Assembly: GCA_016181145.1 (NCBI GenBank)
Contig: JACOZW010000002.1
Location: forward strand, 1-50,606
From: Candidatus Yanofskybacteria bacterium
Lineage (GTDB): Bacteria; Patescibacteriota; Minisyncoccia; 2-02-FULL-40-12; GWA2-44-9
DNA: 50,606 nucleotides
Direction of reading: 5' to 3'
The notes beneath the pieces are model-generated. The model ran no database searches and had not been told where the DNA came from. It was given only the letters and a program-made list of their open reading frames with translations. Within the stretch, counting starts at the first letter, position 1. Each line of letters opens with the position of its first letter. Of this stretch, positions 2,972 through 25,800 are shown one piece after another. The position numbers were made by a program, and so were the translations under genes.

Positions 2972-3973
2972 ATGGTTATATCTAGAACACCTTTTAGGAT
3001 ATCTTTTTTTGGTGGTGGTACAGATTATCCCGCCTGGTATCAAAAGAATGACGGGGCTGTTTTATCTACAGCCATCAACAAATACTGCTATATTACTTGC
3101 CGGTATTTACCGCCATTTTTCAAATACAAGCATAGGATCGTATATAGCAAGAACGAAACAGTAAGTGAGATAGCTGAAATAGACCATCCATCGGTCAGAG
3201 AAACTATGCGTTTTCTTAATATTGATAAAGGGTTGGAGATACATCACGACGGAGACTTGCCATCTATGTCCGGGCTTGGGTCCAGCTCTTCTTTTACTGT
3301 TGGACTTGTAAACGCGCTAAGCATTCTGAACGGAACACCAAAAACAAAGAGAGAAATAGCAATGAATGCGATCCATATTGAACAAAATATGATAAAAGAA
3401 AACGTTGGTTCTCAGGACCAAACGGCGGCAGCTTTTGGCGGACTCAATCGCATAAATTTTGGAGGTGATGAAGAAATATCTATCAAGCCATTAATCTTAA
3501 GCTCTAGCCGACTTGAATCTCTTCAGAACCATCTGTTATTATTTTTTACCGGCCTATCGCGAGATGCTTCAAGAATCGCAAAAGAACAGATAACAAACAT
3601 TAAAGATAGGGATGTCGAGTTGAAATTAATGCACAGACTAGTTGACGAAGGAGAGGCAATTTTAAAAAATAACAGAAAAGGGCTTGATGAATTCGGAAAA
3701 CTACTTAATGAGGGTTGGCAAATAAAAAAATCATTGTCATCAAAAATATCCAATCCGTACATCGACGATGTCTATAAGGCCGGAATGCAAGCCGGAGCGT
3801 TAGGGGGCAAGCTTCTTGGCGCGGGAGGGGGTGGATTTATTCTATTCTTCGCGAAACCAGAGTTACATAAAAAAATAAAAAGCAAATTAAAAAATTTGCT
3901 TTTTGTACCATTTCGATTTGATCATTTGGGCAGCCGGATTATCTATACTGGTAATGATTTTGAAAAATTCTAG
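2972..3973 (+). CDS. GHMP-family sugar kinase (HddA / heptose-7-phosphate-kinase-like)
   Basis: RTPFRISFFGGGTDYP N-terminus, GHMP motif II PSMSGLGSSSSFTVGL and motif III GGKLLGAGGGGFILFF. Confidence 0.85.
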   Translation: MVISRTPFRISFFGGGTDYPAWYQKNDGAVLSTAINKYCYITCRYLPPFFKYKHRIVYSKNETVSEIAEIDHPSVRETMRFLNIDKGLEIHHDGDLPSMSGLGSSSSFTVGLVNALSILNGTPKTKREIAMNAIHIEQNMIKENVGSQDQTAAAFGGLNRINFGGDEEISIKPLILSSSRLESLQNHLLLFFTGLSRDASRIAKEQITNIKDRDVELKLMHRLVDEGEAILKNNRKGLDEFGKLLNEGWQIKKSLSSKISNPYIDDVYKAGMQAGALGGKLLGAGGGGFILFFAKPELHKKIKSKLKNLLFVPFRFDHLGSRIIYTGNDFEKF

Positions 3974-4758
3974 AAAAACCTACTCTGACCTCCATCAATA
4001 ACAACTGAACTGCCGTTCAACAAGCTTGCCCTATCTGAGCACATAAATGCTACAACACTTGCCACTTCTTCGGGCGAACCGAGTCTTCCAAGAGGAAAAT
4101 TCTCTGACACAAACTTACTAAACTCTCCCGGATTTTCCTTTTGTTTTTTGTCCAAACCCGTATCCGGTATCATTATGTGTCCGGGAGCGACACTATTAAA
4201 TGTAATTCCATCCCTTACTAGGTCATGGTTAGCGGATAAATTCTTCATAAGACTTATCTGCGCACTCTTTGCTACGCTATACCATGCCCTTCCACCAGTT
4301 TCACGACCGCATATAGAGGACACCGTGACTACTCTACCCCACTTTTCTTTTCGCATGAGAGGCAGACAAGACATTGTAAATCTGATGGCCGACATGACAT
4401 TTTTATCATACACTTCCCGCCACACATTTTCGGGAGTTTGCTCGACATCATCACTACCCCAGCTTCCACCGCCACCGACATTATTTATCAAGATATGCAA
4501 CCTTCCCCAGGAGATCGTTATCTCATTTACCACACGCGTAACATCATCTGGATTCGTTGCATCAGCCATTATTCCCTTGCCAATAACCTTTTTTCTTTCT
4601 ATCTCTCCGACTACTTCGTCGATTCTTTGTTTATTTCTGGCACAAATAGCCACATTACAGCCTTCATCGGCTAAAGTAAGGGCTATGGCTCGGCCAATTC
4701 CATGACTGCCTCCTGTCACCAGCGCATATTTGCCGTCTAATCCGAGATTCATATCCAA
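3970..4758 (-). CDS. short-chain dehydrogenase/reductase (SDR) family oxidoreductase
   Basis: TGGSHGIGRAIA Rossmann motif, NNVGGGG, and catalytic YSVAKSA (YxxxK). Confidence 0.9.
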   Translation of the reverse strand: MDMNLGLDGKYALVTGGSHGIGRAIALTLADEGCNVAICARNKQRIDEVVGEIERKKVIGKGIMADATNPDDVTRVVNEITISWGRLHILINNVGGGGSWGSDDVEQTPENVWREVYDKNVMSAIRFTMSCLPLMRKEKWGRVVTVSSICGRETGGRAWYSVAKSAQISLMKNLSANHDLVRDGITFNSVAPGHIMIPDTGLDKKQKENPGEFSKFVSENFPLGRLGSPEEVASVVAFMCSDRASLLNGSSVVIDGGQSRFF

Positions 4759-4848: not shown

Positions 4849-5796
4849 TTATATTTCGTGAGTCTTTCTTAACCAAGACAATACTGTTTCTTCCAGATCG
4901 GGCAGTGTAAGGTTATTCAAAGAATGCAGCCAATTTCTCGTTCCATAAACAACAAACTGCTTATCTTGCGAACCTATTCTTTTCAGCTTTATATCAGAAT
5001 CGTTGTCGCTTAATAATTCGCCGACAATGCTTCCCAGACCGCCGACCAGAGAATTTTCCTCAATGGTTATTAATAGTTCGGTGTTACGAATAGTTTCATA
5101 GAAGAGCGGATCAACCGGTTTTAATCGCATCAAGTCTAACAGCCCTACATTGATGCCACGACCTGCCAGACCCTCAGCCAACACCATAGCAACGGAGGTC
5201 ATGTAACCGGTACTGACAATACTTATTCTCTGAACCGGCCTTATAATCTTAAATCCCGACTGAAGCTCAAAACTATTTTCATAAATAACCGGATATACGC
5301 CTTTATCTAAGCGTATATAAGAGGGGCTGTTTTTCTCATATGCCATTCTTGCAACAGCAGAAGCTGACACAGCATCCGAAGGATTATAAATAGTGATTTC
5401 GGGTAATGATCTCATTATGGCTATGTCTTGGGTCCCATGGAGAGCAGGACCGTCCGAATCAAATGAGAACCCGGCACCGATACCAACCACAACTACCGGC
5501 AGATTCATCCCGCAAATATTGAACTTTATCTGCTCGAAACAGCGCATGGTCATAAAAGAGCAAATACCGAAAACAAATACCTTCTTACCGCATAGTGTAA
5601 GGCCAGTGGCAACATTAATCTGATTTTGCTCGGCCACGCCGATGTTAATAAACTGGTCCGGAAAATCACGAACGAATTTTTTAAGCCCGAAGGCATCCAT
5701 ATCATCCGTGAGAAAAAGCATATTCTTGTCTGCCTTGCCTATCTCATAAATTTCGTCAAAAAAGGCATCTCTTATATCTGTTTTGCTTATACCCAC
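4849..5796 (-). CDS. transketolase, C-terminal subunit (pyrimidine-binding + C-terminal domains)
   Basis: FINIGVAEQNQINVATGL and GPALHGTQDIAIMRSLP motifs. Overlaps the N-terminal subunit gene by 10 nt. Confidence 0.9.
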   Translation of the reverse strand: MGISKTDIRDAFFDEIYEIGKADKNMLFLTDDMDAFGLKKFVRDFPDQFINIGVAEQNQINVATGLTLCGKKVFVFGICSFMTMRCFEQIKFNICGMNLPVVVVGIGAGFSFDSDGPALHGTQDIAIMRSLPEITIYNPSDAVSASAVARMAYEKNSPSYIRLDKGVYPVIYENSFELQSGFKIIRPVQRISIVSTGYMTSVAMVLAEGLAGRGINVGLLDLMRLKPVDPLFYETIRNTELLITIEENSLVGGLGSIVGELLSDNDSDIKLKRIGSQDKQFVVYGTRNWLHSLNNLTLPDLEETVLSWLRKTHEI

Positions 5797-6605
5797 TGGG
5801 AACTCAGTTCCTTTCTAGCTATCTCCACTTGTTCCTTAGTCGGAACACCGTGATGCCAATTTGCTTTATTCTCCATAAACGAAACGCCCTTACCCTTTAC
5901 GGTATTAGCCATAACTATCGATGGTTTATCAGACAACTTAACCATCCCCAGGACAGCTAAAATCTCATCCATATTGTGTCCATCCAGCTCCAGATAATTC
6001 CAGCCGAATAATTCCAGTTTTCTGCCAAAGTTCATAAATACGCTATTATCATCATCGATTGTCTCCATAACAGATAAACGATTTCTATCAATTATCACCA
6101 CGAGATTATTTAATTTATGCTGTGAACCAAACATTAATGCTTCCCAGACTGAGCCTTCGAAAAGCTCGGCATCACCGATCATTGTGTAGGCATAATAATC
6201 CCTAGAATCCATTTTGGCTGCTAGAGCCATTCCGGCAGCAATACCAATAGAATGACCCAAAGAACCGGTATTTGTTTCGATCCCGGGCAGGCTTATGTCC
6301 ACCTGACCACCAAGACCGCCGTTCTTGCCATATGTCTCGTAAAGCCCAGGAGAGATGATGCCCATGTCCTTGAATATCGCAAACAGAGCAAGCGAAGCAT
6401 GTCCCTTGCTAAGTATAAATCTGTCCCTATCTTCCCATCCGGGATTATCCAATTTGAATCTCAGAATTTTCCCATAATACAACGCAACCAGAATATCCGT
6501 ACAAGAATATGTCCCGCCGATATGTCCTTTTCCACCAGAAACGGTTGATTCAAGGACTTCCATTCTTACCCAAGCTGCTTTCTTGATTAGCTCTTTGCTA
6601 TCCAT
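5787..6605 (-). CDS. transketolase, N-terminal (ThDP-binding) subunit
   Basis: GHIGGTYSCTDIL, LSKGHASLALFA, GSLGHSIGIAAGMALA and GDAELFEGSVWEA motifs. Confidence 0.9.
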   Translation of the reverse strand: MDSKELIKKAAWVRMEVLESTVSGGKGHIGGTYSCTDILVALYYGKILRFKLDNPGWEDRDRFILSKGHASLALFAIFKDMGIISPGLYETYGKNGGLGGQVDISLPGIETNTGSLGHSIGIAAGMALAAKMDSRDYYAYTMIGDAELFEGSVWEALMFGSQHKLNNLVVIIDRNRLSVMETIDDDNSVFMNFGRKLELFGWNYLELDGHNMDEILAVLGMVKLSDKPSIVMANTVKGKGVSFMENKANWHHGVPTKEQVEIARKELSSQWV

Positions 6606-7753
6606 GTCAGGCCTCCGGTTCGATATTCCAGATTTATTTTTTCTGGGCTAAACGGCTCTATGATTTTTTGATTGTTATCACAGAAAACTTCGACAAAAGT
6701 GGGCTGATCATCAGACATAATAACTTTTAGCTTCTCATCTATCTCTTCGTGGCCAGTTATAACCGCGTATCTCAACCCGAATGCATCAGCAATTTTAGCT
6801 AGATCTAGAGACTCAGCGCCAGTTTCATCATCTGATCCTATGCGCCTACCCTCAAAAACACTATCCTGCCAGTTTCTCATAGAAACGTATCCGCCATTAT
6901 TGATAACAAACAATTTTATATTAAGTCCGTAATACGATATCGTCTTAAGCTCCTGGATATTTAATTCGAGCGAGCCATCTCCTGTTATGGCTAAAATCTG
7001 GGCATCTTTCTTGGCAACACTTGCGCCGATAGCTAACGGAATTGTTAATCCCATTGCGGCAAATGTTCCGGACGTTAGCTCTCTCTGGCCATTTTCAAAT
7101 CTGAAGACCTGGCCGCCGACATAGTAATTTGAGCCGGCATCAGTAACCAAAACATTGCGCGCGCCGGAAAGTGCGTCAACTCTCGACATAAAATAGTAGA
7201 GGTCAATCGGATCTTTTACCATATCTTCTGTTACCATAGGATAAGCTTCTTTCAAACTTTGACAGTAGCTAAGCCAAGAGTTGAAATTGAAAGATCCGGA
7301 TAACTTAGCGTTTAATTTATTGATCACTGTTTTAACATCTGCATTTATAGGCAGGTCTATTCTCACGCCTGATTTTTTTAACTCGGCCGATTCTATATCG
7401 ACAACGATCCTGAATGCACTCTCGGAAAAAGCATCTAATTCGTGGCCGACAAACGGCACCGCAAGCCTGCTACCCAAAGAGATAATCAGATCCGCTGACT
7501 TTAGTATTTTTTTACAATACCGACTCCCCTTAATTCCTGCCAACCCCATATTGCTAGGATGAGAAAAAGGCAGAATATCAATACCGAGCCTGGATAGAAC
7601 CACCGGCGCATTAAGAAGATTCAACAATTCCTTAAAGTCATTTATAGCATTCCCCTGCCTGATTCCGTAACCAGCAACAATAAGCGGCCTGTGCGATTGG
7701 CTTATGGCATGCAGTATTAAATCAATATCCTTTTCCAGGTCATGTATCGGCAT
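6587..7753 (-). CDS. ThDP-dependent ALS/YerE-fold enzyme, central + C-terminal domains (N-terminal domain encoded separately)
   Basis: Central domain PLIVAGYGIRQ..., and the C-terminal ThDP motif GDGSLELNIQELKTISYYGLNIKLFVINNGGY (GDG-x24-NN). Confidence 0.85.
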   Translation of the reverse strand: MPIHDLEKDIDLILHAISQSHRPLIVAGYGIRQGNAINDFKELLNLLNAPVVLSRLGIDILPFSHPSNMGLAGIKGSRYCKKILKSADLIISLGSRLAVPFVGHELDAFSESAFRIVVDIESAELKKSGVRIDLPINADVKTVINKLNAKLSGSFNFNSWLSYCQSLKEAYPMVTEDMVKDPIDLYYFMSRVDALSGARNVLVTDAGSNYYVGGQVFRFENGQRELTSGTFAAMGLTIPLAIGASVAKKDAQILAITGDGSLELNIQELKTISYYGLNIKLFVINNGGYVSMRNWQDSVFEGRRIGSDDETGAESLDLAKIADAFGLRYAVITGHEEIDEKLKVIMSDDQPTFVEVFCDNNQKIIEPFSPEKINLEYRTGGLTWIAKS

Positions 7754-7769
7754 ACTTTTAACCGGCGGG

Positions 7770-8237
7770 CTAAAGCCTTGCCTTCTCCAGATGATATCTA
7801 ATTAAACTAGGATCATTAACCATAACCGCATACTTAGTTAAGGAACTTACTATTGGAATAATATCAATTTCAGCAGTTCCAAAACTTCTTAACCCAGGAA
7901 TTCCCATATTGTGAGTTGTGTGATTGCGCGGCGCTTGCCCGGATATGATCAGAACCGGAGCGGCATCAACATACGCCTCAGCTAAACCCGGTATGGCATT
8001 AGTTGAGCCCGGCCCGCTAGTAAGACAAACCGCCCCCAAAGACTGTTTTAGCCTGGCATATGCTTCAGCCATCATCGGAGAAGCCGCTTCGTTTCTGGCG
8101 CAATAATATTTTATGCTCGGCTGGCTTGCAATCCCATCATTAAGATACATAGCTCCATTTCCGGTGAGAAGAAAGATATCTTCGATACCATTATCAACTA
8201 GAAATCTGGCAATAAAATCTGCAACTCTTGTCATCAT
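7770..8237 (-). CDS. ThDP-dependent ALS/YerE-fold enzyme, N-terminal pyrimidine-binding domain (split or frameshifted from 6587..7753)
   Basis: FLLTGNGAMYLND, ARNEAASPMMAEAYARL and GPGSTNAIPGLAEAY motifs. It stops 16 nt before the next ORF, which is in another frame. A GGAGGG RBS lies just upstream. Confidence 0.85.
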   Translation of the reverse strand: MMTRVADFIARFLVDNGIEDIFLLTGNGAMYLNDGIASQPSIKYYCARNEAASPMMAEAYARLKQSLGAVCLTSGPGSTNAIPGLAEAYVDAAPVLIISGQAPRNHTTHNMGIPGLRSFGTAEIDIIPIVSSLTKYAVMVNDPSLIRYHLEKARL

Positions 8238-8273
8238 TCCCTCCTATCGTTTTCAAGGATCTTTTGTACAAAA

Positions 8274-8301
8274 AGCATACTATATTTTTTGACAAAATCA
8301 A
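8274..8301 (-). promoter_or_regulatory. candidate sigma70-like promoter TTGATT-N16-TATGCT for the ThDP/transketolase operon
   Basis: On the minus strand, TTGATT is the reverse complement of 8296-8301 and TATGCT of 8274-8279. Confidence 0.3.
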
Positions 8302-8457
8302 GTAAGTGAAGCCTTCTTATCTTTCATAATCAATGACGGCTAGAGGTACTGAAAATTTAGCCAGCAGTGTTAGAGAATATAGATTTATAACCCTACAAAT
8401 AAAAATAGCCCTAGTGGGCCATATTATTCTCTAATACTTTCAATAATTTAAATTTAA

Positions 8458-9165
8458 TTAAGCACTCCATCTGAGGTAATGGAGACCGAGGGCTCTTTTG
8501 AGGTCACGTTCGACCATATTTTCGATGCCATGCCGATCTGAAATTTCAGCAGCAAAAGACCGTAGAAAACACAGGCGACCAGGCATATGTGGATCAACAA
8601 TCGACCGCACCTCATCTGATGGAAGCATCCGATACCACTCTGTTTGCCTAATGGCATCTTGGTAAAAATTACGGGGATTCCCCCTTTCCGTTAAAGTAAA
8701 TGGATCCGGATCGCCATACATCCCATTGATGGTCCACATATATGCCGCGCCGACAACTCCAATCGGCCCAAGCCAATCAAGACGATCAGCGCTCCTAAGA
8801 GCTATAAGTAACGAAGAGTCATCCGGCTTGTCTAACTTAGAATGTTTTTCGACGGCATCAATAATTCTATTTTCTGCTTCTTCTGAAAAACCGATGCCAA
8901 ATAAAAGATTGCGACAAACCGTTCCAAAGCCTTCATTGAATATCCGCTCACGATAAGACTTGATCCTATCAACATTGTGCAGAGTAACCGCAGCCTTGAA
9001 TTCCCTATTATCAAATAATATAAAATGCTTGAGTTTTTCGCCAATCTTTAGCATACGAGATGGGTGAGTCCAATCATGTGGCCCCTCCACTTCAGACATT
9101 TTAGAAGATATGCTTTTTTGAAAGTTCATAAGCCCCTCAAGAAGGACATCCACTTCTACTGCCAT
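8458..9165 (-). CDS. HD-domain metal-dependent phosphohydrolase (putative)
   Basis: The spaced motifs HDWTH ... LHNVDR ... ADRLD fit the H..HD..D pattern of the HD superfamily. No finer assignment is possible by eye. Confidence 0.55.
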   Translation of the reverse strand: MAVEVDVLLEGLMNFQKSISSKMSEVEGPHDWTHPSRMLKIGEKLKHFILFDNREFKAAVTLHNVDRIKSYRERIFNEGFGTVCRNLLFGIGFSEEAENRIIDAVEKHSKLDKPDDSSLLIALRSADRLDWLGPIGVVGAAYMWTINGMYGDPDPFTLTERGNPRNFYQDAIRQTEWYRMLPSDEVRSIVDPHMPGRLCFLRSFAAEISDRHGIENMVERDLKRALGLHYLRWSA

Positions 9166-9196
9166 GCCACCTAACCCTACTTTTTTCTTTTTTAAA

Positions 9197-9255
9197 ATAC
9201 TAACTTAACTTATAAGGCTTGTCAAATTGACTTTTTTAGTTTTAACACTTATCAT
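9197..9255. promoter_or_regulatory. divergent promoter node with palindromic back-to-back -35 boxes (TGTCAA-A-TTGACT)
   Basis: Plus strand: TTGACT (9227-9232)-N17-TATCAT (9250-9255). Minus strand: TTGACA (reverse complement of 9220-9225)-N17-TAGTAT (reverse complement of 9197-9202). It shares the TTGTCAAATTGAC core with the 13129 site. Confidence 0.45.
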
Positions 9256-9264
9256 TATTCAAAA

Positions 9265-10239
9265 ATGCCGCCAACTTCTATGCCTAAAACAAATACAGTC
9301 CACTCGCTGACTCTCTATAGAAAAATGTACATGACAAGAAAAGCTGAAGAAAGAATCCAGATAGAAGACAAAAAAAATGAGATGAAGACTCCAATGCATA
9401 TGTCTATGGGAGAAGAAGCAATCTCTGCCGGAGTTTGTGCGGCCCTGAACAAAAGAGCGCAGATCTTTAGCACCTACCGGACACATGCCGTATATCTCTC
9501 GGCCACCGAAGATTTGAAAGGTTTTTTTGCTGAATTATACGGTAAAGCCACGGGGCCAGGAGGCGGCAAAGGAGGTTCTATGCATCTGGCTAATCCTAAG
9601 CGGGGCGTGATATTCAGTTCCGCAGTAGTTGCCACAAATATTGCTCCGGCTCTCGGAGCTGCTTTTGCAAACCGTCGATTAGGTAATGATAAGGTGGCTA
9701 CGACATTCTTCGGAGATGGGGCAGTCGACGAGGGTGTATTTTGGGAAAGTATTAATCTGGCCTGCCTCTGGAAACTACCCGTATTGTTCGTGTATGAAGA
9801 TAATAATTTAGCTATTCACACCCCGGCTTCTATAAGACATAGTTACAAAAACATCGTCGAGATAGTAAAAAAGTTTGGATGTCCAGCAGTAAAATATGAC
9901 GGTACTGATGTAGAAAAAATTTATCAACTAACAGAATCTGCATTGAAACAATTAAAGTCTGGGCCATTTTTTATGTCTTTAAAGTACTATCGATATCTTG
10001 AGCATGTGGGCATAGGAGAAGATTTTAATGCAGGCTATCGTTCTAAAGAAGAATTCCTGAAATGGCAAAAAATTGATCCCCTGGATACCCAGAGGGCAAG
10101 GTTAGTTAAATTGGGTCTCGAGAACACAGTGCTAGCACTAGAAAAGAAGGTGCTGAAAGATATTAATAATGCAGTTGACCTAGCAAAGTCAGCGCCATTT
10201 CCAGAACCAAGAGATCTTTACCGTGGAGTTTATGAATAA
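9265..10239 (+). CDS. ThDP-dependent 2-oxoacid dehydrogenase E1 component, alpha subunit
   Basis: GEEAISAGVCAAL, YRTHAVYL and GGKGGSMHL, plus the ThDP motif FFGDGAVDEGVFWESINLA...VYEDNNLAI. The start may be M1 or M6. Confidence 0.9.
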   Translation: MPPTSMPKTNTVHSLTLYRKMYMTRKAEERIQIEDKKNEMKTPMHMSMGEEAISAGVCAALNKRAQIFSTYRTHAVYLSATEDLKGFFAELYGKATGPGGGKGGSMHLANPKRGVIFSSAVVATNIAPALGAAFANRRLGNDKVATTFFGDGAVDEGVFWESINLACLWKLPVLFVYEDNNLAIHTPASIRHSYKNIVEIVKKFGCPAVKYDGTDVEKIYQLTESALKQLKSGPFFMSLKYYRYLEHVGIGEDFNAGYRSKEEFLKWQKIDPLDTQRARLVKLGLENTVLALEKKVLKDINNAVDLAKSAPFPEPRDLYRGVYE

Positions 10240-11284
10240 AAATATTAGAAAAATTAGCTACCAGCAGGCAATTAGCGAGGCTCTTAGCCAAGAAATGGAA
10301 CGAGATCCGAGAGTTTTTACTTATGGACTAGATGTAGCCGACCATAAATCAATATTCGGTTCAACGGCCGGATTAGTAAAAAAGTTCGGACCTAAAAGAT
10401 GTTTTAGCACTCCCCTCTCAGAAGAAGCCCTTATGGGTTTTGGTATTGGGGCAGCCCTCAACGGACTCAGGCCGGTTAATATTCATATACGAGTAGAGTT
10501 TTTATTGCTAGCCATGAACCAACTGGCCAACATAGCCTCTTCTTTAAGATATGGCAGTAAGGGGGAGCTGTCAGTACCGATAGTTATTAGGGTTATAATC
10601 GGACGAGGCTGGGGTCAAGGCTACCAACACTCAAAGAGCCTACAGTCATTTTTCGCTCATATACCAGGATTAAAAGTAATCATGCCTACGACTCCATATG
10701 ATATGAAGGGGTTATTAGTTTCGGCCATAAGAGATAACGATCCTGTTATTTGCCTAGAGCATCGTTGGCTCTATTGGATTGAAGATCATGTTCCCGAAGA
10801 ACTCTACACCGTGCCAATTGGTCAAAGCCATATCATAAGAAAAGGCTCTGACGTAACTGTTGTGGCAACATCGTGGATGAATGTTGAAGCTCACGATGCC
10901 GCAAATATACTGGCTAAAAGAGGGGTAAATATTGAGATAATTGACCCCAGGACAATATCGCCCCTGGACGACCGTACAATCATTGATTCAGTAAATAAAA
11001 CTGGACATTGTATCGTCGCAGATTATGATTGGCTTAACTGTGGCTTTGGCTCCGAAGTATCAGCGCGCGTATCTGAAAAATGTTTTAGAAAACTAAAATC
11101 TCCCGTAACAAGAATCGGCTTCGCACCGACTCCGTGTCCAACCACAAGACCACTTGAAAATTTATTCTATCCTAATGCGGTTAGCATTGTTAGGGCCGTA
11201 GAAAAAAAGATGAGCCTAAAAGAAGCAGATTTAAGAAAAGAGAGCTTTCATACCTGGGAAAATAAGTTTAGAGGACCTTTTTAA
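10223..11284 (+). CDS. 2-oxoacid dehydrogenase E1 component, beta subunit
   Basis: ISYQQAISEALSQEMERDPRVFTYGLDV and PLSEEALMGFGIGAALNGLRP, with a C-terminal transketolase-C-like domain. Overlaps the alpha gene by 17 nt. Confidence 0.9.
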   Translation: MEFMNKNIRKISYQQAISEALSQEMERDPRVFTYGLDVADHKSIFGSTAGLVKKFGPKRCFSTPLSEEALMGFGIGAALNGLRPVNIHIRVEFLLLAMNQLANIASSLRYGSKGELSVPIVIRVIIGRGWGQGYQHSKSLQSFFAHIPGLKVIMPTTPYDMKGLLVSAIRDNDPVICLEHRWLYWIEDHVPEELYTVPIGQSHIIRKGSDVTVVATSWMNVEAHDAANILAKRGVNIEIIDPRTISPLDDRTIIDSVNKTGHCIVADYDWLNCGFGSEVSARVSEKCFRKLKSPVTRIGFAPTPCPTTRPLENLFYPNAVSIVRAVEKKMSLKEADLRKESFHTWENKFRGPF

Positions 11285-13217: not shown

Positions 13218-14414
13218 ATGAAAAAAATAATATATCCCCTACAAAAAGATACTATCGCAAAAGAGGATCACCGCGCACTTGCCCAATGGATCGATAGTGA
13301 CCCATTACCACGCTTAACCATGGGATCTTTAGTTAAGAAATTTGAAGATAAATGGTCGGATTGGCTTGGTGTAAAATATTCTATAGCCTGTAATTCCGGC
13401 TCCTCGGCAAACTTGTTGATGTATTATACTCTCTTACGCTCGGGCAGATTAAAAAATAAGAAGATTATCGTACCAAGTGCTGCCTGGGTAACAACTGTGG
13501 CTCCAGCCATTCAGCTTGGATTTGAACCAATTATGTGTGAAGCCGATACCAAAACCTTCGGTTTAGATCATAATCACCTGGAGCAGCTTCTAAAAAAGCA
13601 TCGGCCCTCAACGGTAATTATGGTCCAAGTTTTAGGAGTACCCAATGATATGGATAAAATCATGAAGCTTAAAAAGAAATATAAATTCTTTCTCTTGGAA
13701 GATGTGTGTGCTGCCATGGGCTCAAAATATAAAGAGCGAAAACTTGGTACTTATGGTGATATGGCTAGTATCTCTACTTACTTTGGACACCAGTTCTCAA
13801 CAATAGAGGGTGGTCTTGTGTCAACTAATGACAGGGGGTTTTATGAACTCCTGATAATGCTTAGGAGTCATGGCTGGATAAGCGGTCTTAGTTCTAAGAC
13901 AAGGACTAATCTGCTTAAAAAATATAAGATAGCTGATACTGGCACGCATTTTATTTTTTGTGAACCCGGTTTTAATTTTCGCTTAACCGACCTGCAGGCA
14001 TTCATAGGAATCCGTCAGCTTGAAAAAATGGATTGGTTAGTGGAAAATAGATCTAGGAATCATAATTTATACAAGGATTTTCTGTCATCTAATTTTGACA
14101 TCCAAGAATATGACCGCAGCTCAAGAGTATGTAGCATACATTTCTGTGTACTAGCTGATAATAAAGAAGAGCGTATTAAAATAATTAAGGCCCTTGAAGA
14201 CAGCGGTATAGAAACAAGGCCCTTTACATCAGGTAATCAGGGTCTACATCCATACTGGTTCAGAGAATATGGAAAATTCAATGCTCCCGTGGCAGACCGC
14301 CTGTATTATTGTGGCTTTTTCTTACCTAACTATCCGACCCTTACTACAAAAGATATAAAATACATATGCTCAGTTGTAACAAAAGCGGCATTAAAAAACA
14401 GACATGAAGCATAA
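13218..14414 (+). CDS. PLP/PMP-dependent sugar 3-dehydratase of the DegT family (ColD / E1-type, His in place of catalytic Lys)
   Basis: DegT/DnrJ/EryC1 fold (ACNSGSSANLL, LLEDVCAAMGS). At the position where aminotransferases carry the Schiff-base Lys, the sequence reads STYFGHQFSTIEGG, followed by LRSHGW, as in ColD/E1 3-dehydratases. Confidence 0.7.
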   Translation: MKKIIYPLQKDTIAKEDHRALAQWIDSDPLPRLTMGSLVKKFEDKWSDWLGVKYSIACNSGSSANLLMYYTLLRSGRLKNKKIIVPSAAWVTTVAPAIQLGFEPIMCEADTKTFGLDHNHLEQLLKKHRPSTVIMVQVLGVPNDMDKIMKLKKKYKFFLLEDVCAAMGSKYKERKLGTYGDMASISTYFGHQFSTIEGGLVSTNDRGFYELLIMLRSHGWISGLSSKTRTNLLKKYKIADTGTHFIFCEPGFNFRLTDLQAFIGIRQLEKMDWLVENRSRNHNLYKDFLSSNFDIQEYDRSSRVCSIHFCVLADNKEERIKIIKALEDSGIETRPFTSGNQGLHPYWFREYGKFNAPVADRLYYCGFFLPNYPTLTTKDIKYICSVVTKAALKNRHEA

Positions 14415-15360
14415 ATCAAATAAAAATCCCAAAGTGCTGGTCACGGGAGGAGCTGGATATATTGGTTCTATTTTAGTGCCGACTTTATTGCACTCGGGCT
14501 TTGATGTCACGGTAATAGATAATTTTATGTACAGACAAACTCCCCTTCTAGACCATTGCCACCTCAAGCATTTGGATATAGTGAAAGGTGATACTAGAGA
14601 TGATAAACTTTTAAAAAAGTATATTCCCAAAGCAGATATAATAATACCACTTGCCTGCATAGTTGGTGCCCCGGCTTGCGATAAAGATCCTCTAAAGGCT
14701 AGGTCTGTAAACCTAGATGCAATTGTTAAAATTCTAAAAATAAAATCTCCCAGTCAATTAGTTATCTATCCCAACACAAATAGCGGTTATGGCGTTGGTC
14801 AAAAAGGAATTTATTGTAATGAAAAAACGCCCCTAAACCCAATATCTCTCTACGGTAAATTAAAGGTCCAAGCCGAAGAAGCTGTATTAAGCTCAAAAAA
14901 TTCAATTACACTAAGGCTAGCAACAGTATTTGGTCTAAGTCCCAGGATGAGACTAGATCTATTAGTAAACGATTTCGTCCATAGAGCAGTCAATGATAGA
15001 TTTCTAGTTTTATTTGAAGCCCACTTCAAAAGGAACTATGTCCACATAAGAGATGTCGCTTCTGCATTTATGCATAGCATAGAAAATTTCAATCGCATGA
15101 AAGGACAACCATATAATGTAGGCCTGAGCAAAGCCAATTTAAGCAAGTGGGAACTATGCCACGAAATAAAGAAACAGGTGCCTGAGTTCTACTTTCATGA
15201 AGCAGAAATAGGAGAAGATCCGGATAAACGTAATTATATTGTCAGTAACGCCAAAATTGAAGCGACAGGTTTTAAGACTAAGATTTCATTGCAAGAGGGA
15301 ATAGCTGAATTAATAAAGGGCTATCGCATCATTAGCCATAATAACTTTACCAATGTCTAA
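14404..15360 (+). CDS. NAD-dependent sugar-nucleotide epimerase/dehydratase
   Basis: VLVTGGAGYIGS Rossmann motif and a YGKLK (YxxxK) motif. Overlaps the upstream gene by 11 nt. Confidence 0.85.
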   Translation: MKHKSNKNPKVLVTGGAGYIGSILVPTLLHSGFDVTVIDNFMYRQTPLLDHCHLKHLDIVKGDTRDDKLLKKYIPKADIIIPLACIVGAPACDKDPLKARSVNLDAIVKILKIKSPSQLVIYPNTNSGYGVGQKGIYCNEKTPLNPISLYGKLKVQAEEAVLSSKNSITLRLATVFGLSPRMRLDLLVNDFVHRAVNDRFLVLFEAHFKRNYVHIRDVASAFMHSIENFNRMKGQPYNVGLSKANLSKWELCHEIKKQVPEFYFHEAEIGEDPDKRNYIVSNAKIEATGFKTKISLQEGIAELIKGYRIISHNNFTNV

Positions 15361-16330
15361 AAAAATCACCCCCAAAAAAGCTTTAATAACAGGAATTTCT
15401 GGTTCTGGGGCTAGCTACCTTGCAGATTATATTCTTGATAACCACCCCGACATTGAACTTCATGGCACAACTCGCAGTAACAGCAACCTCAAAAACATTG
15501 AAAATAGGATTAGTAAAATAAATCTCTGGACCGACATATTAGAGAACAAGGATGATCTAACTGAAATGCTTCGCCATCTTAAACCAGATTTGATTTTTCA
15601 CATCGCTTCATATGCTAACGTCCGGGAATCTTGGGATAGGGTGCCTTTTGTAATGGAAAACAATATCAAAATGACCGCCGATTTACTCGAGGCCATACGA
15701 CTAGCTGAAATTAAACCTAGAATTCAAATATGCAGCACACCTGAAGTCTATGGCCAGGTCGATCCTAAAAATATCCCAATTAATGAAAGCTGTCCTATTA
15801 ACCCGAGCAATCCCTATGCCGTATCCAAGTTCGCCCAGGAATCACTTGGATATTCTTACTTCAAGGGCTACGGTTTACCGATAGTAATCACCCGCATGTC
15901 TACCTACCTTAATCCCAGGAGGGCCGATCTCTTTGCTACTGCTTTTGCAATGCAAGTTGCGCGCATAGAGGCCGGCCTGCAAAAGACGTTACTCCACGGT
16001 AACCTCGAATCAACAAGAACAATCCTTGATGCTCGTGATTGTGCAAGTGCGTACTGGACAGCTCTTGAACGAGGTATACCTGGCCAAGTGTATAATATCG
16101 GTGGAATACAAATTGTAAGTGTTGGAGAATTTTTAGATATCCTTAAGAAAAAAGCTGCATGTCCTATCCCATCCGAAGTAGACCCAAAACTACTGAGGCC
16201 GTCTGATGTTACATTACAGGTTATAGATAGCACAAAATTTATGGATCAAACTGGCTGGAAACCCCAGTATACATTTGAAGAAAGTGTTGCTCTTCTGCTT
16301 GAACATTGCCGTCGGGAAGTTAAAAAATAA
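15353..16330 (+). CDS. GDP-mannose 4,6-dehydratase / GDP-6-deoxy-mannose reductase family (Gmd/Rmd-like)
   Basis: ALITGISGSGASYLADYIL, YAVSKFAQE and LRPSDV are arranged as in Gmd/Rmd proteins. Overlaps the upstream gene by 8 nt. Confidence 0.7.
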   Translation: MSKKITPKKALITGISGSGASYLADYILDNHPDIELHGTTRSNSNLKNIENRISKINLWTDILENKDDLTEMLRHLKPDLIFHIASYANVRESWDRVPFVMENNIKMTADLLEAIRLAEIKPRIQICSTPEVYGQVDPKNIPINESCPINPSNPYAVSKFAQESLGYSYFKGYGLPIVITRMSTYLNPRRADLFATAFAMQVARIEAGLQKTLLHGNLESTRTILDARDCASAYWTALERGIPGQVYNIGGIQIVSVGEFLDILKKKAACPIPSEVDPKLLRPSDVTLQVIDSTKFMDQTGWKPQYTFEESVALLLEHCRREVKK

Positions 16331-16365
16331 ACACTGCCTCAAAAAAGTTAGTGATAATTCAGAGT

Positions 16366-16394
16366 AAACCGATATTAAACAAATCGGTTTTTTA
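16366..16394 (+). terminator. intrinsic terminator
   Basis: AAACCGAT-ATTAAACAA-ATCGGTTT hairpin followed by TTTT. Confidence 0.6.
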
Positions 16395-16397
16395 AAC

Positions 16398-16426
16398 TTG
16401 TGCTGTAATTGTATATGTGTTATAAA
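16398..16426 (+). promoter_or_regulatory. candidate promoter TTGTGC-N17-TATAAA (TG-extended -10)
   Basis: -35 at 16398-16403 and -10 at 16421-16426, preceded by TGT. Confidence 0.35.
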
Positions 16427-16459
16427 ATTAAAACTAGCATTTTAACAAGGGGTGTAGTT

Positions 16460-17391
16460 ATGGTAAGAAGAGTTTTAGTCTGTGGAGCAAGTGGATTTGT
16501 CGGGAGAAACATATTCGAACGCCTATCTGAGCGCCAAGATATTGAACTTATAGGAACTTACTATAAGAATCGTTTTAGCTCAGACCCGCGCTTAGTTCAA
16601 GTCGACCTAACTGACAGAAATCAGGTGAATGAGCTAATGAAGGGCGTTGATGTTTTAATCCAGGCCGCAGCGGTTACTAAGAAAGGCCATATATCCATGT
16701 TACCGATAATGGAATTATGAACCTCCTTCTGTATCAGGCTTCTTTTGACCAGTGCGTTGAAAAAGTAATTTTCTTCAGCTGTTCGATTATGTATCCCGGC
16801 GGTGATAGGCCTCTGAAAGAAACTGATCTGGATCTCAATGACGGTATTTATCCCGCATATTTAGGAGCTGGTTGGACAAAGGTCTATCTAGAGAAAATGT
16901 GTGACTTTTATTCACGCCAAGGCAGAACCAAGTTTGTCGTGATTAGGCATTCCAATACATACGGTCCGTATGATAAATATGATCTTGAGCGATCTCATAT
17001 GTTCGGCGCCAACATTACCAAAGTTATGACGGCTAAAGATAGTGATGAGATCACAGTCTGGGGAACCGGCCAGGAAAAAAGAGATCTGGTATATATTTCT
17101 GATGTTGTTGATTTTGTCGAGCTGGCCATGGCAAAGCAAAGTCAAGAAAACTTTGACCTAGTTAATGTCGGCTGCGGTGAAGCCCTGAGCGTAAACGATA
17201 TAATTTCAAAAATAATTCTTGCCTCAGGCAAGAACCTATCATTAACACACAATATAGCTGGACCGACTATTCCGGTTAGCATTGTACTCGACATAACAAG
17301 AGCAAAAAATGTATATGGCTGGCGACCTAAAGTTTCTCTTGATACGGGCATTGCTAAGACCATTGATTGGTATCGTAAAAATCTTCTATAA
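16460..17391 (+). pseudogene. GDP-L-fucose-synthase/ColC-like epimerase-reductase, interrupted by a frameshift near 16676-16682
   Basis: ORF 16409..16720 carries MVRRVLVCGASGFVGRN...QAAAVT and then runs into nonsense and a stop. The frame of ORF 16717..17391 is open from 16681 (ERPYIHVTDNGIMNLLLYQASF...SCSIMYP...YGPYDKYDLERSHMFGA). Joining the two at the AAGAAAGG run restores a normal SDR. AAGGGG RBS before the ATG at 16460. Confidence 0.75.
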
Positions 17392-17472: not shown

Positions 17473-18459
17473 ATGTTGGGGAAAATATCTGTGAAATACA
17501 GACCGCTCGGAGCAAGTGGAATTATAGTTTCCGAAATTGGATTTGGTGGCTGGGGCATCGGTGGCGTAACTCCGGGTCCGACCTCCTACGGTCCGACCGA
17601 CGACAATGAATCGCGAAGAGCCCTAGAAACAGCTTTTGATAAGGGAATAAACTATTACGACACCGCTAGCGTCTACGGCAAGAGCGAAGAATTAATCGGA
17701 AAAACTTTCAGGGATAAACGAGACCAGGTCGTTATTGGCACTAAGGTTGGATTTCTAGAACATCACACTCCGCAAGATTTTTCCCAGAAAAATATTGTCG
17801 CTACGCTTGAAAAAAGTTTAAATAATCTGGGAACAGATTACATCGACCTTTATCAGCTACACAACCCCGATATTCCAAATTTACCAATGGATGAGATCAT
17901 AGATACCTTAAACGGATTAAAGACTCGGGGCTTGATCAGGGCCCTCGGAGTTTCAGTTAAACATCCTAATCACGGCTTAACAGTGTTTAAATACGGGATA
18001 TTCAGCTCAATACAGGCTAATCTTAGTATGATCGATCAGAGAGCAATTGATAACAATCTCATGGAACTAGCCGAGGAACAGAGCGTGGGAGTTATCGGGC
18101 GCACTCCCTTGAACTTTGGATTCCTTACTGATAACGGGAAAACAATGAGCCTTGACTTCAGTCCGCAGGATCATAGGTCAGTTTGGCCAATGAAGCAAAG
18201 AGAAGCCTGGCAAAAGGCTGCCCGACTATTGTCGGAAGTCGCCCCTGAATATCCACTGGCCCAATTGGCCTTATGTTACTGCTTAAGCATTGCGGGAGTG
18301 AGTACTGTTATCCCCGGCCTACTTACAGTAAATGATGTTTTGGAGAACACCCTCGCCTCAAGCCTGCCGAGACTAAGTCCGGACCAAATGGATCAGATCA
18401 GACAGATATACAACGAAAACGACCAATTCTTCGTCCAGCAACCTAGACCCCCTCAATAA
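17473..18459 (+). CDS. aldo/keto reductase
   Basis: GFGGWGIGG, YYDTASVYGKSEELIG and LYQLHNPD motifs. Confidence 0.9.
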   Translation: MLGKISVKYRPLGASGIIVSEIGFGGWGIGGVTPGPTSYGPTDDNESRRALETAFDKGINYYDTASVYGKSEELIGKTFRDKRDQVVIGTKVGFLEHHTPQDFSQKNIVATLEKSLNNLGTDYIDLYQLHNPDIPNLPMDEIIDTLNGLKTRGLIRALGVSVKHPNHGLTVFKYGIFSSIQANLSMIDQRAIDNNLMELAEEQSVGVIGRTPLNFGFLTDNGKTMSLDFSPQDHRSVWPMKQREAWQKAARLLSEVAPEYPLAQLALCYCLSIAGVSTVIPGLLTVNDVLENTLASSLPRLSPDQMDQIRQIYNENDQFFVQQPRPPQ

Positions 18460-18541: not shown

Positions 18542-20701
18542 GTGAGCTTAATTCCGCTTAAGACTGCAACAGAAGGACCTATTTACCCGATGGCGACAAA
18601 ACCACCGATAGAAAAAATTAAGGTAGGCCAAGTTCAGCTTAATACCAGCTTCTCGAATCAGTATTATCTTCCCCTCGCCTCCGGGATGCTTCGGGCTTAT
18701 TCAAAAAAACACCTGATATATTCGGACTATTACGAATTTAATGATATGGTCTTCAAATTTCCTAAAAATAAAAAGGAGTTAGATGAAACGGCTGAACAAC
18801 TAAGCGAAAACCACTTACTCCTAGTCGGAAACTATACCTGGGGAGAACAACACTCTTTAGCCTTAGCCCGCAAATATAAACAGTATAATCCTAACGGAAT
18901 TGTTGTTTTCGGCGGACCTCAGGTACCTGACAGCAAAAAACAATTCCGCAGAAACAAAACTATTGAGCTTACCGAGGAAGAACAAAAGAGAAAAAGAACA
19001 AGCTTTACCCCAAACTACCATCACGCTAATCCGTTTATTGATATTTGTCTTCACGGTGAAGGCGAAAGATCATTGCGTTATCTTCTTGAACAAATGGCAA
19101 TTGACGGTCTTCGGGATAAAACCGCTATTCCCTCTGCTAGTTACGTGGATATGAGCGGCAATTTCTGCTACAACGCAAAGCTCGGAAGAATGAGTAGCCA
19201 GGAATTGGCCGAAACGGCATCACCGTTTACAACCAGCATATTTGATAACCTCATTCCGCGTTATCCAGAGCTTGTTTTCATAGTAATGTATGAGACAGAC
19301 CGCGGTTGTCCATTTAACTGTACATATTGCGATTGGGGTGGCGCGACAGAAGACAGAATAAGCCAGATGCCTATGGAAATGATCTATAAGGATATCATGT
19401 GGATGGGAGAGAGACGAATTCCATATGTATTTTTATGTAATGCAAATTTCGGAATTCTCGAACGCGACATACAAATTGCCGAATTTTTCGCCGAAGCTAA
19501 AGCTAAATATGGATTTCCGGAAGCAATTAGCACTCAGAATTCAAAGAATCCTAAAAGACACACTATAGAAGCTCTCAAAGTCTTACAGCGAGCTGGTATA
19601 AACAAGGCTACAGTAATGTCCCAACAATCATTAAATCCCCCCACCCTAAAGGCGGTAAGGCGTAATAACATGAATCTTGACGAATACTATAAAATCCAGA
19701 AGGAATTGGCGGCAGAGGGAATTGATACGATGACAGACCTGATTCCCGGCATGCCGGAAGAGACATACGACACCCTATTTAACGGTATTGTGACTTTAAT
19801 CACCAATGGCCAGCATAACCGCATCCAATTCAACATTCTTTCCACGCTGATTAATACCGAGATGGCCAATGAGGAATATAAGGACTATTACGGATTCCAA
19901 ACGGTAAAAACCCCGATCATTAATGCCCATGGAAGCAGAGGCGATATGAATACCGGAATCGAGGAATTGCAGGAGTTTGTGGTCGCTACCAATACTATGC
20001 CAACCGAGGATTGGATTAAAACATACGTCCTCTGCTGGACCGTCAATCTGCTTTATTTCAGTAAACTTCTCCAGATTCCCATAATAGTTCTCAACAAAGT
20101 ATACGGCTTGGATTACCGCAAAATTTTTGAACTATTTCTTACTGGACGATTTTCGCAATACGGAGATTTTCCAGTACTATCCGAAATTAACAAGTTCCTG
20201 ACTGAGGTTGGCTCAGGTATCCAGAAAGGTGAACGAGGAGAATTCACTTACTCCAAAGAGTGGCTGGATATTTACTGGATGTCAGATGAATATGTATTAA
20301 TAAAGATGTGCAAAGAAGGAAAGATGGAGAAATTTTATGAAGAAGCTCACAGATTAATGTCGCAACTCATTGAGCCTCATCAGAACAGAGGGCCGCTTGA
20401 CGAAGCCGTCAAGCTAAACAAATCTTTACTAAAAATTCCGTTCCAGACGAGCGATCTGGACCTGACCCTCAAATACAGCATCTGGGATATGTATAGGGCC
20501 GTGCTTCGGGGTAAAAACGAAGACTTAAGAACCGGACATTACCAGTATACTATCGACCGAACTACAAAAGACGAGCGTGGTAGCAATTGGTGGGGATCAT
20601 GGGAGGATTGGTACAGGCAGATGGTTTGGTACTGCAACCGGCGAGGTGCCTATCTTTACGGCAATGTGAATCCGCATCAGGAAATCTCCGGTCATCATTA
20701 A
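18542..20701 (+). CDS. B12-binding-domain radical SAM enzyme (class B type) with a long C-terminal extension
   Basis: N-terminal Rossmann-like B12-type domain (LLLVGNYTW...VVFGGPQVP). Radical SAM cluster motif RGCPFNCTYCDWGG (CxxxCxxC). Confidence 0.85.
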   Translation: MSLIPLKTATEGPIYPMATKPPIEKIKVGQVQLNTSFSNQYYLPLASGMLRAYSKKHLIYSDYYEFNDMVFKFPKNKKELDETAEQLSENHLLLVGNYTWGEQHSLALARKYKQYNPNGIVVFGGPQVPDSKKQFRRNKTIELTEEEQKRKRTSFTPNYHHANPFIDICLHGEGERSLRYLLEQMAIDGLRDKTAIPSASYVDMSGNFCYNAKLGRMSSQELAETASPFTTSIFDNLIPRYPELVFIVMYETDRGCPFNCTYCDWGGATEDRISQMPMEMIYKDIMWMGERRIPYVFLCNANFGILERDIQIAEFFAEAKAKYGFPEAISTQNSKNPKRHTIEALKVLQRAGINKATVMSQQSLNPPTLKAVRRNNMNLDEYYKIQKELAAEGIDTMTDLIPGMPEETYDTLFNGIVTLITNGQHNRIQFNILSTLINTEMANEEYKDYYGFQTVKTPIINAHGSRGDMNTGIEELQEFVVATNTMPTEDWIKTYVLCWTVNLLYFSKLLQIPIIVLNKVYGLDYRKIFELFLTGRFSQYGDFPVLSEINKFLTEVGSGIQKGERGEFTYSKEWLDIYWMSDEYVLIKMCKEGKMEKFYEEAHRLMSQLIEPHQNRGPLDEAVKLNKSLLKIPFQTSDLDLTLKYSIWDMYRAVLRGKNEDLRTGHYQYTIDRTTKDERGSNWWGSWEDWYRQMVWYCNRRGAYLYGNVNPHQEISGHH

Positions 20702-20706
20702 AATAT

Positions 20707-20733
20707 AAACCCCACACATAGTGTGGGGTTTTA
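20707..20733. terminator. bidirectional intrinsic terminator between convergent radical SAM genes
   Basis: AAACCCCACAC-ATA-GTGTGGGGTTT hairpin, flanked by an A run on the left and a T run on the right. Confidence 0.75.
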
Positions 20734-20739
20734 ATTATC

Positions 20740-25724: not shown

Positions 25725-25768
25725 TTTTACCTATAAGCAACCCTAACCAGGGTTGCTTATAGGTAAAA
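25725..25768 (+). promoter_or_regulatory. perfect 20-bp stem / 4-nt loop hairpin in the predicted 5' leader of the nonulosonic-acid operon
   Basis: TTTTACCTATAAGCAACCCT-AACC-AGGGTTGCTTATAGGTAAAA has no mismatch. There is no U tract after it on either strand. Confidence 0.5.
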
Positions 25769-25800
25769 TGGGGCAGCTTGACTTATTTATAATAACCGTT

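Follow-up and report, generated by a model that had tools for sequence, protein, structure and literature searches.

A stretch of 50,606 nucleotides from a metagenome-assembled genome of Candidatus Yanofskybacteria (contig JACOZW010000002.1, positions 1 to 50,606, hereafter the window), a member of the candidate phyla radiation (CPR)/Patescibacteria, is in its entirety a glycan island. It encodes three thiamine diphosphate (ThDP)-dependent enzyme systems next to each other: a transketolase (TK)-like enzyme in two genes, an acetolactate synthase (ALS)-fold enzyme related to the sugar carboligase YerE, and a pair of subunits of the 2-oxoacid dehydrogenase E1 type. A preliminary description of this DNA had presented these as three unrelated systems lying side by side among sugar-nucleotide genes, and had read them as the source of one or more branched-chain or chain-extended sugars. 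Scans of the window confirmed the sugar-nucleotide surroundings, but the three systems proved to be a conserved and probably horizontally spread module, whose co-location recurs in many other phyla; they are found side by side because this one gene module is common to many uncultured phyla. The reading in terms of branched or chain-extended sugars is partly supported, in that the comparative evidence strengthens it while calling for its revision, and we consider it probable that the window holds one local version of this module and that its task is to branch nucleotide-activated keto-sugars at carbon or to extend their chain.

Conservation of the module across genomes

Through a scan of 185,579 species genomes for the YerE-like family we obtained 80 loci, which were compared by tblastn with the window proteins and whose open reading frames (ORFs) were clustered. 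Genes for both the N-terminal and the C-terminal half of the TK-like enzyme (TK-N and TK-C) are present in all 20 loci that combine a YerE-like protein of at least 50% identity with at least 1.8 kb of downstream sequence, and 17 of the 24 loci in this identity class have E1 alpha/beta genes within 10 kb. Between 40 and 50% identity the two TK genes are found in 12 of 25 loci and an E1 gene (E1 beta) within 10 kb in two, while below 40% neither system occurs in any of 32 loci. In the class with at least 50% identity the TK genes lie directly 3' of the YerE-like gene, at offsets of +5 to +120 nt, with one intervening gene in two loci. The order 4,6-dehydratase-like gene > E1 alpha > E1 beta is seen at 12 or more loci. 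The carriers are spread over Planctomycetota, Gammaproteobacteria, Omnitrophota, Patescibacteria, Saccharibacteria, Nealsonbacteria, Microgenomates, Chloroflexota, Elusimicrobia and Marinimicrobia. Relatives of the intact ALS-fold protein with 56-89% identity number more than 120 among the matches listed, and come from Omnitrophota, Curtissbacteria, Chloroflexota and others.

The genes YerE-like carboligase > TK-N > TK-C > short-chain dehydrogenase/reductase (SDR) constitute a tightly coupled operon. The same order is retained in two close relatives of the window, with 83% (L084) and 75% (L085) identity, in both of which the YerE-like gene is intact and a GHMP kinase gene is divergently adjacent, as in the window. 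Recurrent partners of the module include the 4,6-dehydratase-like gene, an SDR or aldo-keto reductase (AKR) gene beside TK, methyltransferases, fucose-synthase-like and RmlC-like epimerases and an HddA-like GHMP kinase, and several other loci have GmhA-like SIS and NTP-transferase/HAD (HddC-type heptose) genes, which amount to a GDP-heptose route. The 3,6-dideoxy-4-keto-hexose operon previously proposed next to the ThDP genes (13218-17391) is plausible, and probably of the GDP type, in view of its ColD-like histidine and dehydratase motifs, but such a ColD-type operon is not among the conserved partners of the module. With heptose genes as partners and the ColD operon not conserved, it may be a heptose, and not a hexose, that the module modifies.

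The gene directly upstream of the YerE-like gene varies by locus, and every version of it is a 2-oxoacid source: a class I/II aminotransferase, an acetaldehyde dehydrogenase together with a DmpG-type 4-hydroxy-2-oxovalerate aldolase (L009 and L010), or an altronate/galactarate-dehydratase-like gene together with a PdxA-like gene. In erwiniose synthesis ErwE is supplied by ErwI and ErwJ, and transamination is an alternative source of the donor (PMC9306805).

A sister YerE-like subfamily with 43-48% identity is found without TK in SAR11/Pelagibacteraceae (L024-L033 and L048); its neighbors are an HddA-like GHMP kinase, a ColD-like/DegT gene and a homologue of the SDR that begins at 14404 in the window.

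The YerE-like carboligase and its disruption in the window

The ALS-fold gene of the window, 6587-8237 on the reverse strand, spans 1651 nt that the ORF listing divides between two different frames. The 155-aa N-terminal fragment (7770-8237) holds the PYR domain with the catalytic glutamate in a NEAAS motif (TPP_enzyme_N 1.5e-31, the match spanning only profile positions 2-108 of 119). The 388-aa C-terminal fragment (6587-7753), which bears the NCBI name 'thiamine pyrophosphate-binding protein' (P0007), holds the TH3 and PP domains (TPP_enzyme_M 3.2e-26, TPP_enzyme_C 2.3e-34) and the GDG-x24-NN motif. The motif reported earlier is thus present, but the single intact gene that had been assumed is not, since it is split by a frameshifting deletion of 92 bp, whose site (7754-7780, reverse strand) comprises the junction at 7779/7780, the premature stop of the N-terminal fragment and the gap between the ORFs.

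The deletion is defined by a Logan contig from another read set (SRR12113430, L001), which across roughly 1 kb is 100% identical to the window but has 92 additional bases at 7779/7780; in it the intact N-terminus is visible and the gene encodes a protein of 579 aa. What the window copy lacks corresponds to about residues 153-183 of this protein (AVYLATSGRPGPVWLDIPMDVQYAQINPDEL), a segment with 11 columns that are invariant among 25 orthologues, for instance in the GRPGPVW motif. Likewise invariant in these orthologues are E49, D450, G451 and N476/N477. A single polypeptide with PYR, TH3 and PP domains, as expected of a YerE-like carboligase, is found in the intact allele (L001 plus window) and in 120 of 120 homologues listed, whereas in the window copy these domains are divided between the two fragments. 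If the assembly is correct, the frameshifting deletion has probably cost this contig its carboligase step; given the intact gene in an otherwise identical contig from the other read set, it may also represent a minority variant or an assembly error. A microhomology-mediated origin of the deletion was considered and rejected, because AAGGC is retained on either side of the junction, which leaves no clean slippage signature.

The best solved relative of the intact protein is JanthE (8rph, identified through PMC12188165; 2.6e-95, 323 bits, residues 3-555), a YerE-like, ketone-accepting carboligase, which scores above acetohydroxyacid synthase (AHAS; 3.6e-68, 234 bits for the plant enzyme). Against the NCBIfam acetolactate synthase equivalog the fragment reaches 218 bits, with a cut-off of 976, and in the comparison with housekeeping Tkt, pyruvate dehydrogenase (PDH) and IlvB profiles all three systems of the window remain under the NCBIfam equivalog cut-offs, which supports the earlier reading. 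The intact ALS-fold protein is likeliest a YerE-like carboligase, with putative activity in keto-sugar carboligation.

The split transketolase-like enzyme

The two-gene transketolase of the earlier account is borne out by the domain matches on the reverse strand: TK-N (5787-6605) is the ThDP-binding PP domain (Transketolase_N 1.4e-31), and TK-C (4849-5796) comprises the Pyr and C domains and has a changed phosphate pocket (Transket_pyr 3e-26, Transketolase_C 6.9e-15). The gene for TK-N shares 19 nt with the YerE-like gene and 10 nt with that for TK-C. Among solved structures the two halves come closest to the split TK of Carboxydothermus hydrogenoformans (6yak 1.6e-55, 6yaj 5.3e-44), and TK-C is also similar to 1-deoxyxylulose-5-phosphate synthase (DXS; 2o1s, 7.7e-29). 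With NCBIfam NF004559 the halves score 232.7 bits (N) and 154.7 bits (C) and miss the equivalog cut-off of 488.

The active-site signature of this TK-like family was read in the window protein plus about 25 orthologues. Residues are given in human numbering, and we take the E. coli and Geobacillus (TKgst) positions to correspond to it as indicated. H37, H77, H258, R318, E366 and D424 are kept throughout. The canonical histidine H110 (E. coli H100, TKgst H102) is replaced by glutamine, the glutamine of the GSLGQ motif by histidine (GSLGH), and the GDG motif by GD[A/S/G], with GDA in the window; the canonical DLSxST in the S345 region reads DMDAF, H416 (TKgst H462) is glycine and R474 (TKgst R521) is lysine. 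Consequently, from the housekeeping phosphate-binding set R318/S345/H416/R474 and the histidine H110 that contacts the donor C1 hydroxyl, R318 alone is kept, whereas the canonical split TK of Carboxydothermus retains every canonical signature residue. The lineage of the window differs further by DGPALHG, as against DGPTHHG in the family, and has leucine or isoleucine at the position of TKgst H474 (E. coli H473).

Several of these positions have been engineered in TKgst: the H102L/H474S variant uses pyruvate and aliphatic 2-oxoacids as donors, and S385D/H462I/R521H improves the use of non-phosphorylated aldoses (PMC11997939). The natural substitutions at the engineered positions lead us to predict that the donor of the TK-like enzyme is a 2-oxoacid and that its acceptor is not phosphorylated.

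In the Nealsonbacteria loci L019 and L022 (cluster c43, e.g. L022 12369-14219) the C half of TK is fused to a SAM-methyltransferase-like domain, which in other loci is a separate gene downstream of TK. The fusion provides a Rosetta-stone link of the TK product with methylation.

The E1 alpha/beta pair

The third system, on the forward strand, consists of an E1 alpha-like subunit of the alpha-KADH2 type (9265-10239; E1_dh 3.1e-53) and an E1 beta-like subunit (10223-11284; Transket_pyr and Transketolase_C), so that the E1 pair formerly described at 9265-11284 is upheld. E1 alpha scores 248 bits against TIGR03182 (cut-off 393.85) and E1 beta 302.7 bits against its NCBIfam equivalog (cut-off 321). 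Orthologues of E1 alpha with 49-53% identity occur at 13 loci, mostly right behind the 4,6-dehydratase-like gene; in the window the E1 pair and the dehydratase-like gene at 15353 are 4 kb apart. The histidine of the YRYxxH loop of E1 alpha (human His263) is conserved when read by eye, and being conserved it does not tell the alternatives weighed below apart.

E1 beta aligns with PDB 3duf_B (7.9e-70) from query position 11 to 330 on residues 4-323 of 325, and continues beyond the canonical C-terminus with an extra tail of about 21-25 aa that is kept in 20 orthologues. The tail ends in F[KRQN]GPF (…ENKF[KR]GPF; FRGPF in the window), with GPF invariant, and is lacking in solved E1 beta chains of PDH and of branched-chain 2-oxoacid dehydrogenase (BCKDH). 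The canonical C-terminus of E1 beta contributes to E2 binding in the PDH of Geobacillus. That no E2 or E3 partner accompanies the pair in the window, as had been noted, was confirmed: the Pfam matches of all sizeable window ORFs include no lipoyl, E2 or E3 domain, and a scan for E2/E3 motifs was negative for all 517 ORFs taken from the window and 27 related loci.

In the relative with 83% identity the E1 slot between the dehydratase-like and YerE-like genes (L084, 4501-5656) is filled by two small ThDP-type ORFs, one of 199 aa (E1_dh/TPP_enzyme_C, with GDM for GDG) and one of 181 aa (Transket_pyr only), which are 27-33% identical to the window E1. They may represent a minimal two-subunit ThDP enzyme.

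Proposed function

In the pathway that we propose, the 4,6-dehydratase, joined in the window by the ColD-type 3-dehydratase, would generate a 4-keto-6-deoxy or 3,6-dideoxy hexose or heptose, probably linked to GDP. The E1 pair would decarboxylate pyruvate and place the acetyl equivalent onto a sugar ketone, as do alpha-KADH2 enzymes, and the YerE-like enzyme would take a 2-oxoacid that is supplied locally and attach its acyl-anion equivalent to a sugar ketone. The TK-like enzyme could carry out one more transfer, of a C2 or acyl unit, driven by a 2-oxoacid donor. The SDR or AKR would reduce the new branch ketone in the role of YerF, and methyltransferases or radical SAM enzymes might decorate the branch. 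The constant pairing of the YerE-like and TK genes raises the possibilities that the two enzymes act sequentially, by way of the acyloin ketone, that they act at two positions, or that they act on two different sugars. In a bolder scheme, which we hold to be unlikely, the three carboligases would act one after another on a single nucleotide sugar, with the acyloin ketone left by one enzyme as the acceptor for the next; the obligate YerE-like/TK combination would then be a new two-enzyme carboligation unit, with a natural TK using 2-oxoacids on a non-phosphorylated nucleoside diphosphate (NDP)-sugar, and the pathway would yield a higher-carbon sugar of an undescribed type, with several branches or an extended chain, widespread on the surfaces of CPR and other uncultured bacteria.

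Precedents for ThDP enzymes that branch keto-sugars, invoked in the preliminary description, extend to all three classes, each of which has been documented or proposed for sugar branching (2025 review, PMC12247030). In the literature searched, where this 2025 review alone turned up, we found no described cluster with all three enzymes and none in which YerE accompanies a transketolase; the preliminary description likewise knew of no pathway with this combination.

Some observations weigh against our proposal. The sugar-branching role of the TKs published so far is itself unproven (PMC12247030), and the close loci all come from uncultured organisms. The likeness to YerE-type enzymes, which had been put forward for comparison, holds for JanthE but not for PpYerE (5ahk), whose 208 bits lie under the 234 bits of plant AHAS, so that the YerE-like clade is not delimited by sequence similarity alone. 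Finally, the YerE-like gene of the window is broken and at least two other genes of the island are split, which may mean that the window copy is decaying or that the assembly is imperfect. Compatible with the proposed function of the module at large, then, is the idea that the local module is an inactive remnant in a decaying island, its YerE-like gene a pseudogene and no branched sugar being made here, and to this we assign an appreciable chance, somewhat short of even. It draws on the 92-bp deletion with the loss of 11 invariant residues, on the frameshifted fucose-synthase-like gene and on the glycosyltransferase gene split at 38861-40069; it has to contend with the intact gene in the identical contig from the other read set, and with TK, E1, SDR and GHMP genes that are full-length and keep their lineage-specific motifs among relatives.

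The remaining alternatives concern the chemistry of the module. It is conceivable, albeit unlikely, that small 2-oxoacids and aldehydes are joined, much as DXS would do it, into a free higher-carbon ketose or acyloin, which is only then phosphorylated by the GHMP kinase, activated and transferred, so that the C-C bond would precede activation. The GHMP kinase is indeed one of the most conserved partners and only distantly HddA-like (159.6 vs 600 bits), the changes in the TK pocket suit small non-phosphorylated substrates, 2-oxoacid supply genes lie upstream of the YerE-like gene, and TK-C resembles DXS as stated above. In several loci, though, this kinase stands beside GmhA-like SIS, HAD and NTP-transferase genes, with which it makes up the usual pathway that leads from sedoheptulose-7-phosphate to heptose, while the order 4,6-dehydratase-like > E1 alpha > E1 beta and the ColD-like gene indicate NDP-keto-sugar acceptors, which are also the acceptors of characterised YerE-like enzymes (PMC9306805). 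The same heptose genes (GmhA-like SIS, HddA-like GHMP kinase, HAD/NTP-transferase) in orthologous loci, along with the TK fold and cofactor residues, could be taken to mean that the split TK is an ordinary pentose-phosphate enzyme that provides sedoheptulose-7-phosphate for GDP-heptose, leaving only the YerE-like enzyme and E1 to act on sugars. We think this improbable: the phosphate-binding set of four has lost two residues and has a third one changed, and the donor-hydroxyl histidine is glutamine, all in conserved fashion; the score is far under the TK equivalog cut-off; and the TK genes are always tied to the YerE-like gene rather than to gmhA, and they turn up also where heptose genes are absent and in a genome of 8 Mb that is expected to have its own housekeeping TK. 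That genes of central metabolism (AHAS, PDH or acetoin E1, and the TK of the pentose phosphate pathway) landed by chance in a glycan island is a notion to which we give hardly any credence. Among named NCBIfam models the best matches are to acetolactate synthase, PDH E1 and transketolase, but every score is under the equivalog cut-off, ilvN, ilvC, ilvD, E2 and E3 are absent (window scans, with E2/E3 also absent across related loci), the synteny with sugar genes is kept across phyla, and each subfamily has a signature of its own.

Relationship to known systems and implications

The module carboligase shares with YerE (yersiniose A), ErwE (erwiniose), MMAR_2332 (caryophyllose) and JanthE the PYR/TH3/PP architecture, the GDG-x24-NN motif and the catalytic glutamate. 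Like YerE-type clusters, the module is accompanied by keto-sugar-forming genes, a reductase and a 2-oxoacid supply, including an ErwI/ErwJ-like pair in L009 and L010 (PMC9306805); this context is seen in the ColD-like and 4,6-dehydratase-like genes of the window, the SDR/AKR genes downstream and the supply genes upstream in orthologous loci. Unlike what is reported for the YerE, ErwE and MMAR_2332 clusters, the module carboligase is always followed by a split TK-like gene. Its context is of the GDP/ColD type, with heptose genes in other loci, and not that of CDP-3,6-dideoxyglucose. Most of its carriers are uncultured CPR, Omnitrophota, Planctomycetota and Chloroflexota, and the window copy, unlike the YerE-type enzymes, is disrupted.

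By gene content the E1 pair resembles the alpha-KADH2 pairs (AlmDI/DII of aldgarose, KbDH-alpha/beta of kibdelomycin and the proposed AviB1/B2), which likewise occur without E2/E3 in deoxysugar clusters; at the 12 or more loci mentioned above the module pair stands next to a 4,6-dehydratase-like gene. The known pairs, however, come from actinomycete antibiotic clusters and those of the module from the surface-glycan islands of many phyla, and the conserved C-terminal FxGPF tail of E1 beta is a difference from the known pairs. With the 2-oxoacid dehydrogenase E1 of PDH, BCKDH and acetoin dehydrogenase the pair shares the E1 alpha and beta domains, but in the window and the related loci it has no E2/E3 alongside.

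The split TKs proposed for sugar branching in miharamycin and amipurimycin are comparable in gene context, being two-gene TKs in sugar-modifying clusters that are candidates to move an acyl or hydroxyacetyl group onto a sugar carbonyl. The sugar-branching TK candidates so far are 13, all from Streptomyces and uncharacterised (PMC12247030). The module TK differs from the miharamycin-type candidates in lying outside the actinomycetes, in being strictly paired with a YerE-like gene and in having a defined active-site signature. Housekeeping TKs, including the Carboxydothermus split TK (6yaj/6yak), have the same fold, the cofactor-activating glutamate and the catalytic histidines (human H37, H77 and H258) and, in that case, the same split architecture. 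The module TK departs from them in glutamine at H110, loss of the S345 motif, glycine at H416, lysine at R474 and, in the window lineage, leucine or isoleucine at E. coli H473.

Known branched sugars made by ThDP enzymes come from a few pathogens and antibiotic producers and involve one enzyme class each, whereas the module unites all three ThDP classes. If it is, as we propose, a module for branching or extending nucleotide-activated keto-sugars, its retention from CPR to Planctomycetota and Gammaproteobacteria would imply a widespread and unstudied family of surface sugars in uncultured bacteria, for which the order YerE-like > TK-N > TK-C could serve as a simple genomic marker. The loci would further constitute the first large set of candidate sugar-modifying transketolases from outside the actinomycetes, and, as their natural active-site signature matches the engineered donor and acceptor switches, ready candidates for biocatalysis.

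Other genes of the glycan island

The remaining genes of the island include several with a plausible part in the proposed pathway. The GHMP sugar kinase (2972-3973, forward strand; Pfam GHMP_kinases_N and _C) is distantly HddA-like, with 159.6 bits against the NCBIfam HddA model (cut-off 600). It has homologues of 50-60% identity at 12 orthologous loci and is also present in L084 and L085. The classical SDR ketoreductase (3970-4758, reverse strand; adh_short_C2 9.1e-50) is the final gene of the YerE-like > TK > SDR operon; homologues with 52-65% identity lie downstream of TK in 11 loci, its position is unchanged in L084 and L085, and it would have a YerF-like role in reducing the branch ketone. 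Between the YerE-like gene and E1 alpha lies a 235-aa ORF (8458-9165, reverse strand) with no match to Pfam, also at an E-value of 0.01, or to NCBIfam. It is specific to the lineage, being found in L001 and not in the other related loci, and its AlphaFold2 model is an all-helical prediction of unusable confidence (mean pLDDT 34).

On the forward strand, the DegT gene at 13218-14414 encodes a pyridoxamine phosphate (PMP)-dependent 3-dehydratase of the ColD type (PDB 2gms, ColD, 4.1e-52), with a histidine in the position of the lysine that binds pyridoxal phosphate (PLP). This residue aligns with ColD His188, the site mutated in 3b8x (ColD H188N). It is followed by an extended SDR, an epimerase or reductase (14404-15360; Pfam Epimerase) with homologues of 61% identity in an Elusimicrobia locus (L013) and of 47-50% in the SAR11 loci, and by the NDP-sugar 4,6-dehydratase-like gene (15353-16330; GDP_Man_Dehyd 3.7e-56). 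The product of the latter carries STPEVYG and YAVSK motifs, in which the T-x-E and YxxxK dehydratase residues presumably have the catalytic roles that they have in GMD and RmlB, and would be the maker of the 4-keto acceptor. The ColD-like gene and these dehydratase motifs together make a GDP-3,6-dideoxy-4-keto sugar plausible. Next come a GDP-L-fucose-synthase-like epimerase/reductase (16409-17391; NCBIfam Fcl), which is present as two ORFs owing to a frameshift near 16678-16684, the L013 orthologue aligning to frame 2 and then to frame 1, and an AKR (17473-18459; Aldo_ket_red 1.2e-58), whose homologues of 42-46% identity adjoin TK in L006 and L013.

A radical SAM enzyme that co-occurs with the module is encoded at 18542-20701 on the forward strand (Pfam Radical_SAM). 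The island has three such enzymes (18542-22038 and 44123-45694), two of them with B12-binding domains, and homologues of the first two (18542-22038) adjoin TK in L006 and L013, a hint that the branched sugar may be C-methylated. A second GDP-L-fucose-synthase-like epimerase/reductase (23495-24448, forward strand; NCBIfam Fcl 7.1e-44) belongs to a cluster with members in 20 sources and is a frequent partner of the module. Several methyltransferases and glycosyltransferases complete the island. The Rfam gathering scan and the tRNA scan found no RNA genes in the window, and hence no thiamine pyrophosphate (TPP) riboswitch.

Three further regions of the window are of separate interest. A nonulosonic-acid set at 25753-35058 has genes for NeuB, a NeuC-like 2-epimerase and a CMP-transferase, for a WbuX amidotransferase with HisF/HisH-like proteins, and for a methyltransferase, a carbamoyltransferase and a GFO/IDH oxidoreductase. 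It suggests that this CPR bacterium makes a sugar of the legionaminic/pseudaminic type with acetamidino or carbamoyl decoration. At 38861-40069 a glycosyltransferase family 4 (GT4) gene, the third broken gene of the window, is split into a Glyco_transf_4 ORF (38861-39625) and a Glycos_transf_1 ORF (39653-40069). Embedded in the glycan island on the reverse strand (40066-43920) are a DUF4956 protein, a VTC-domain protein and an 806-aa CotH-kinase/beta-helix protein.

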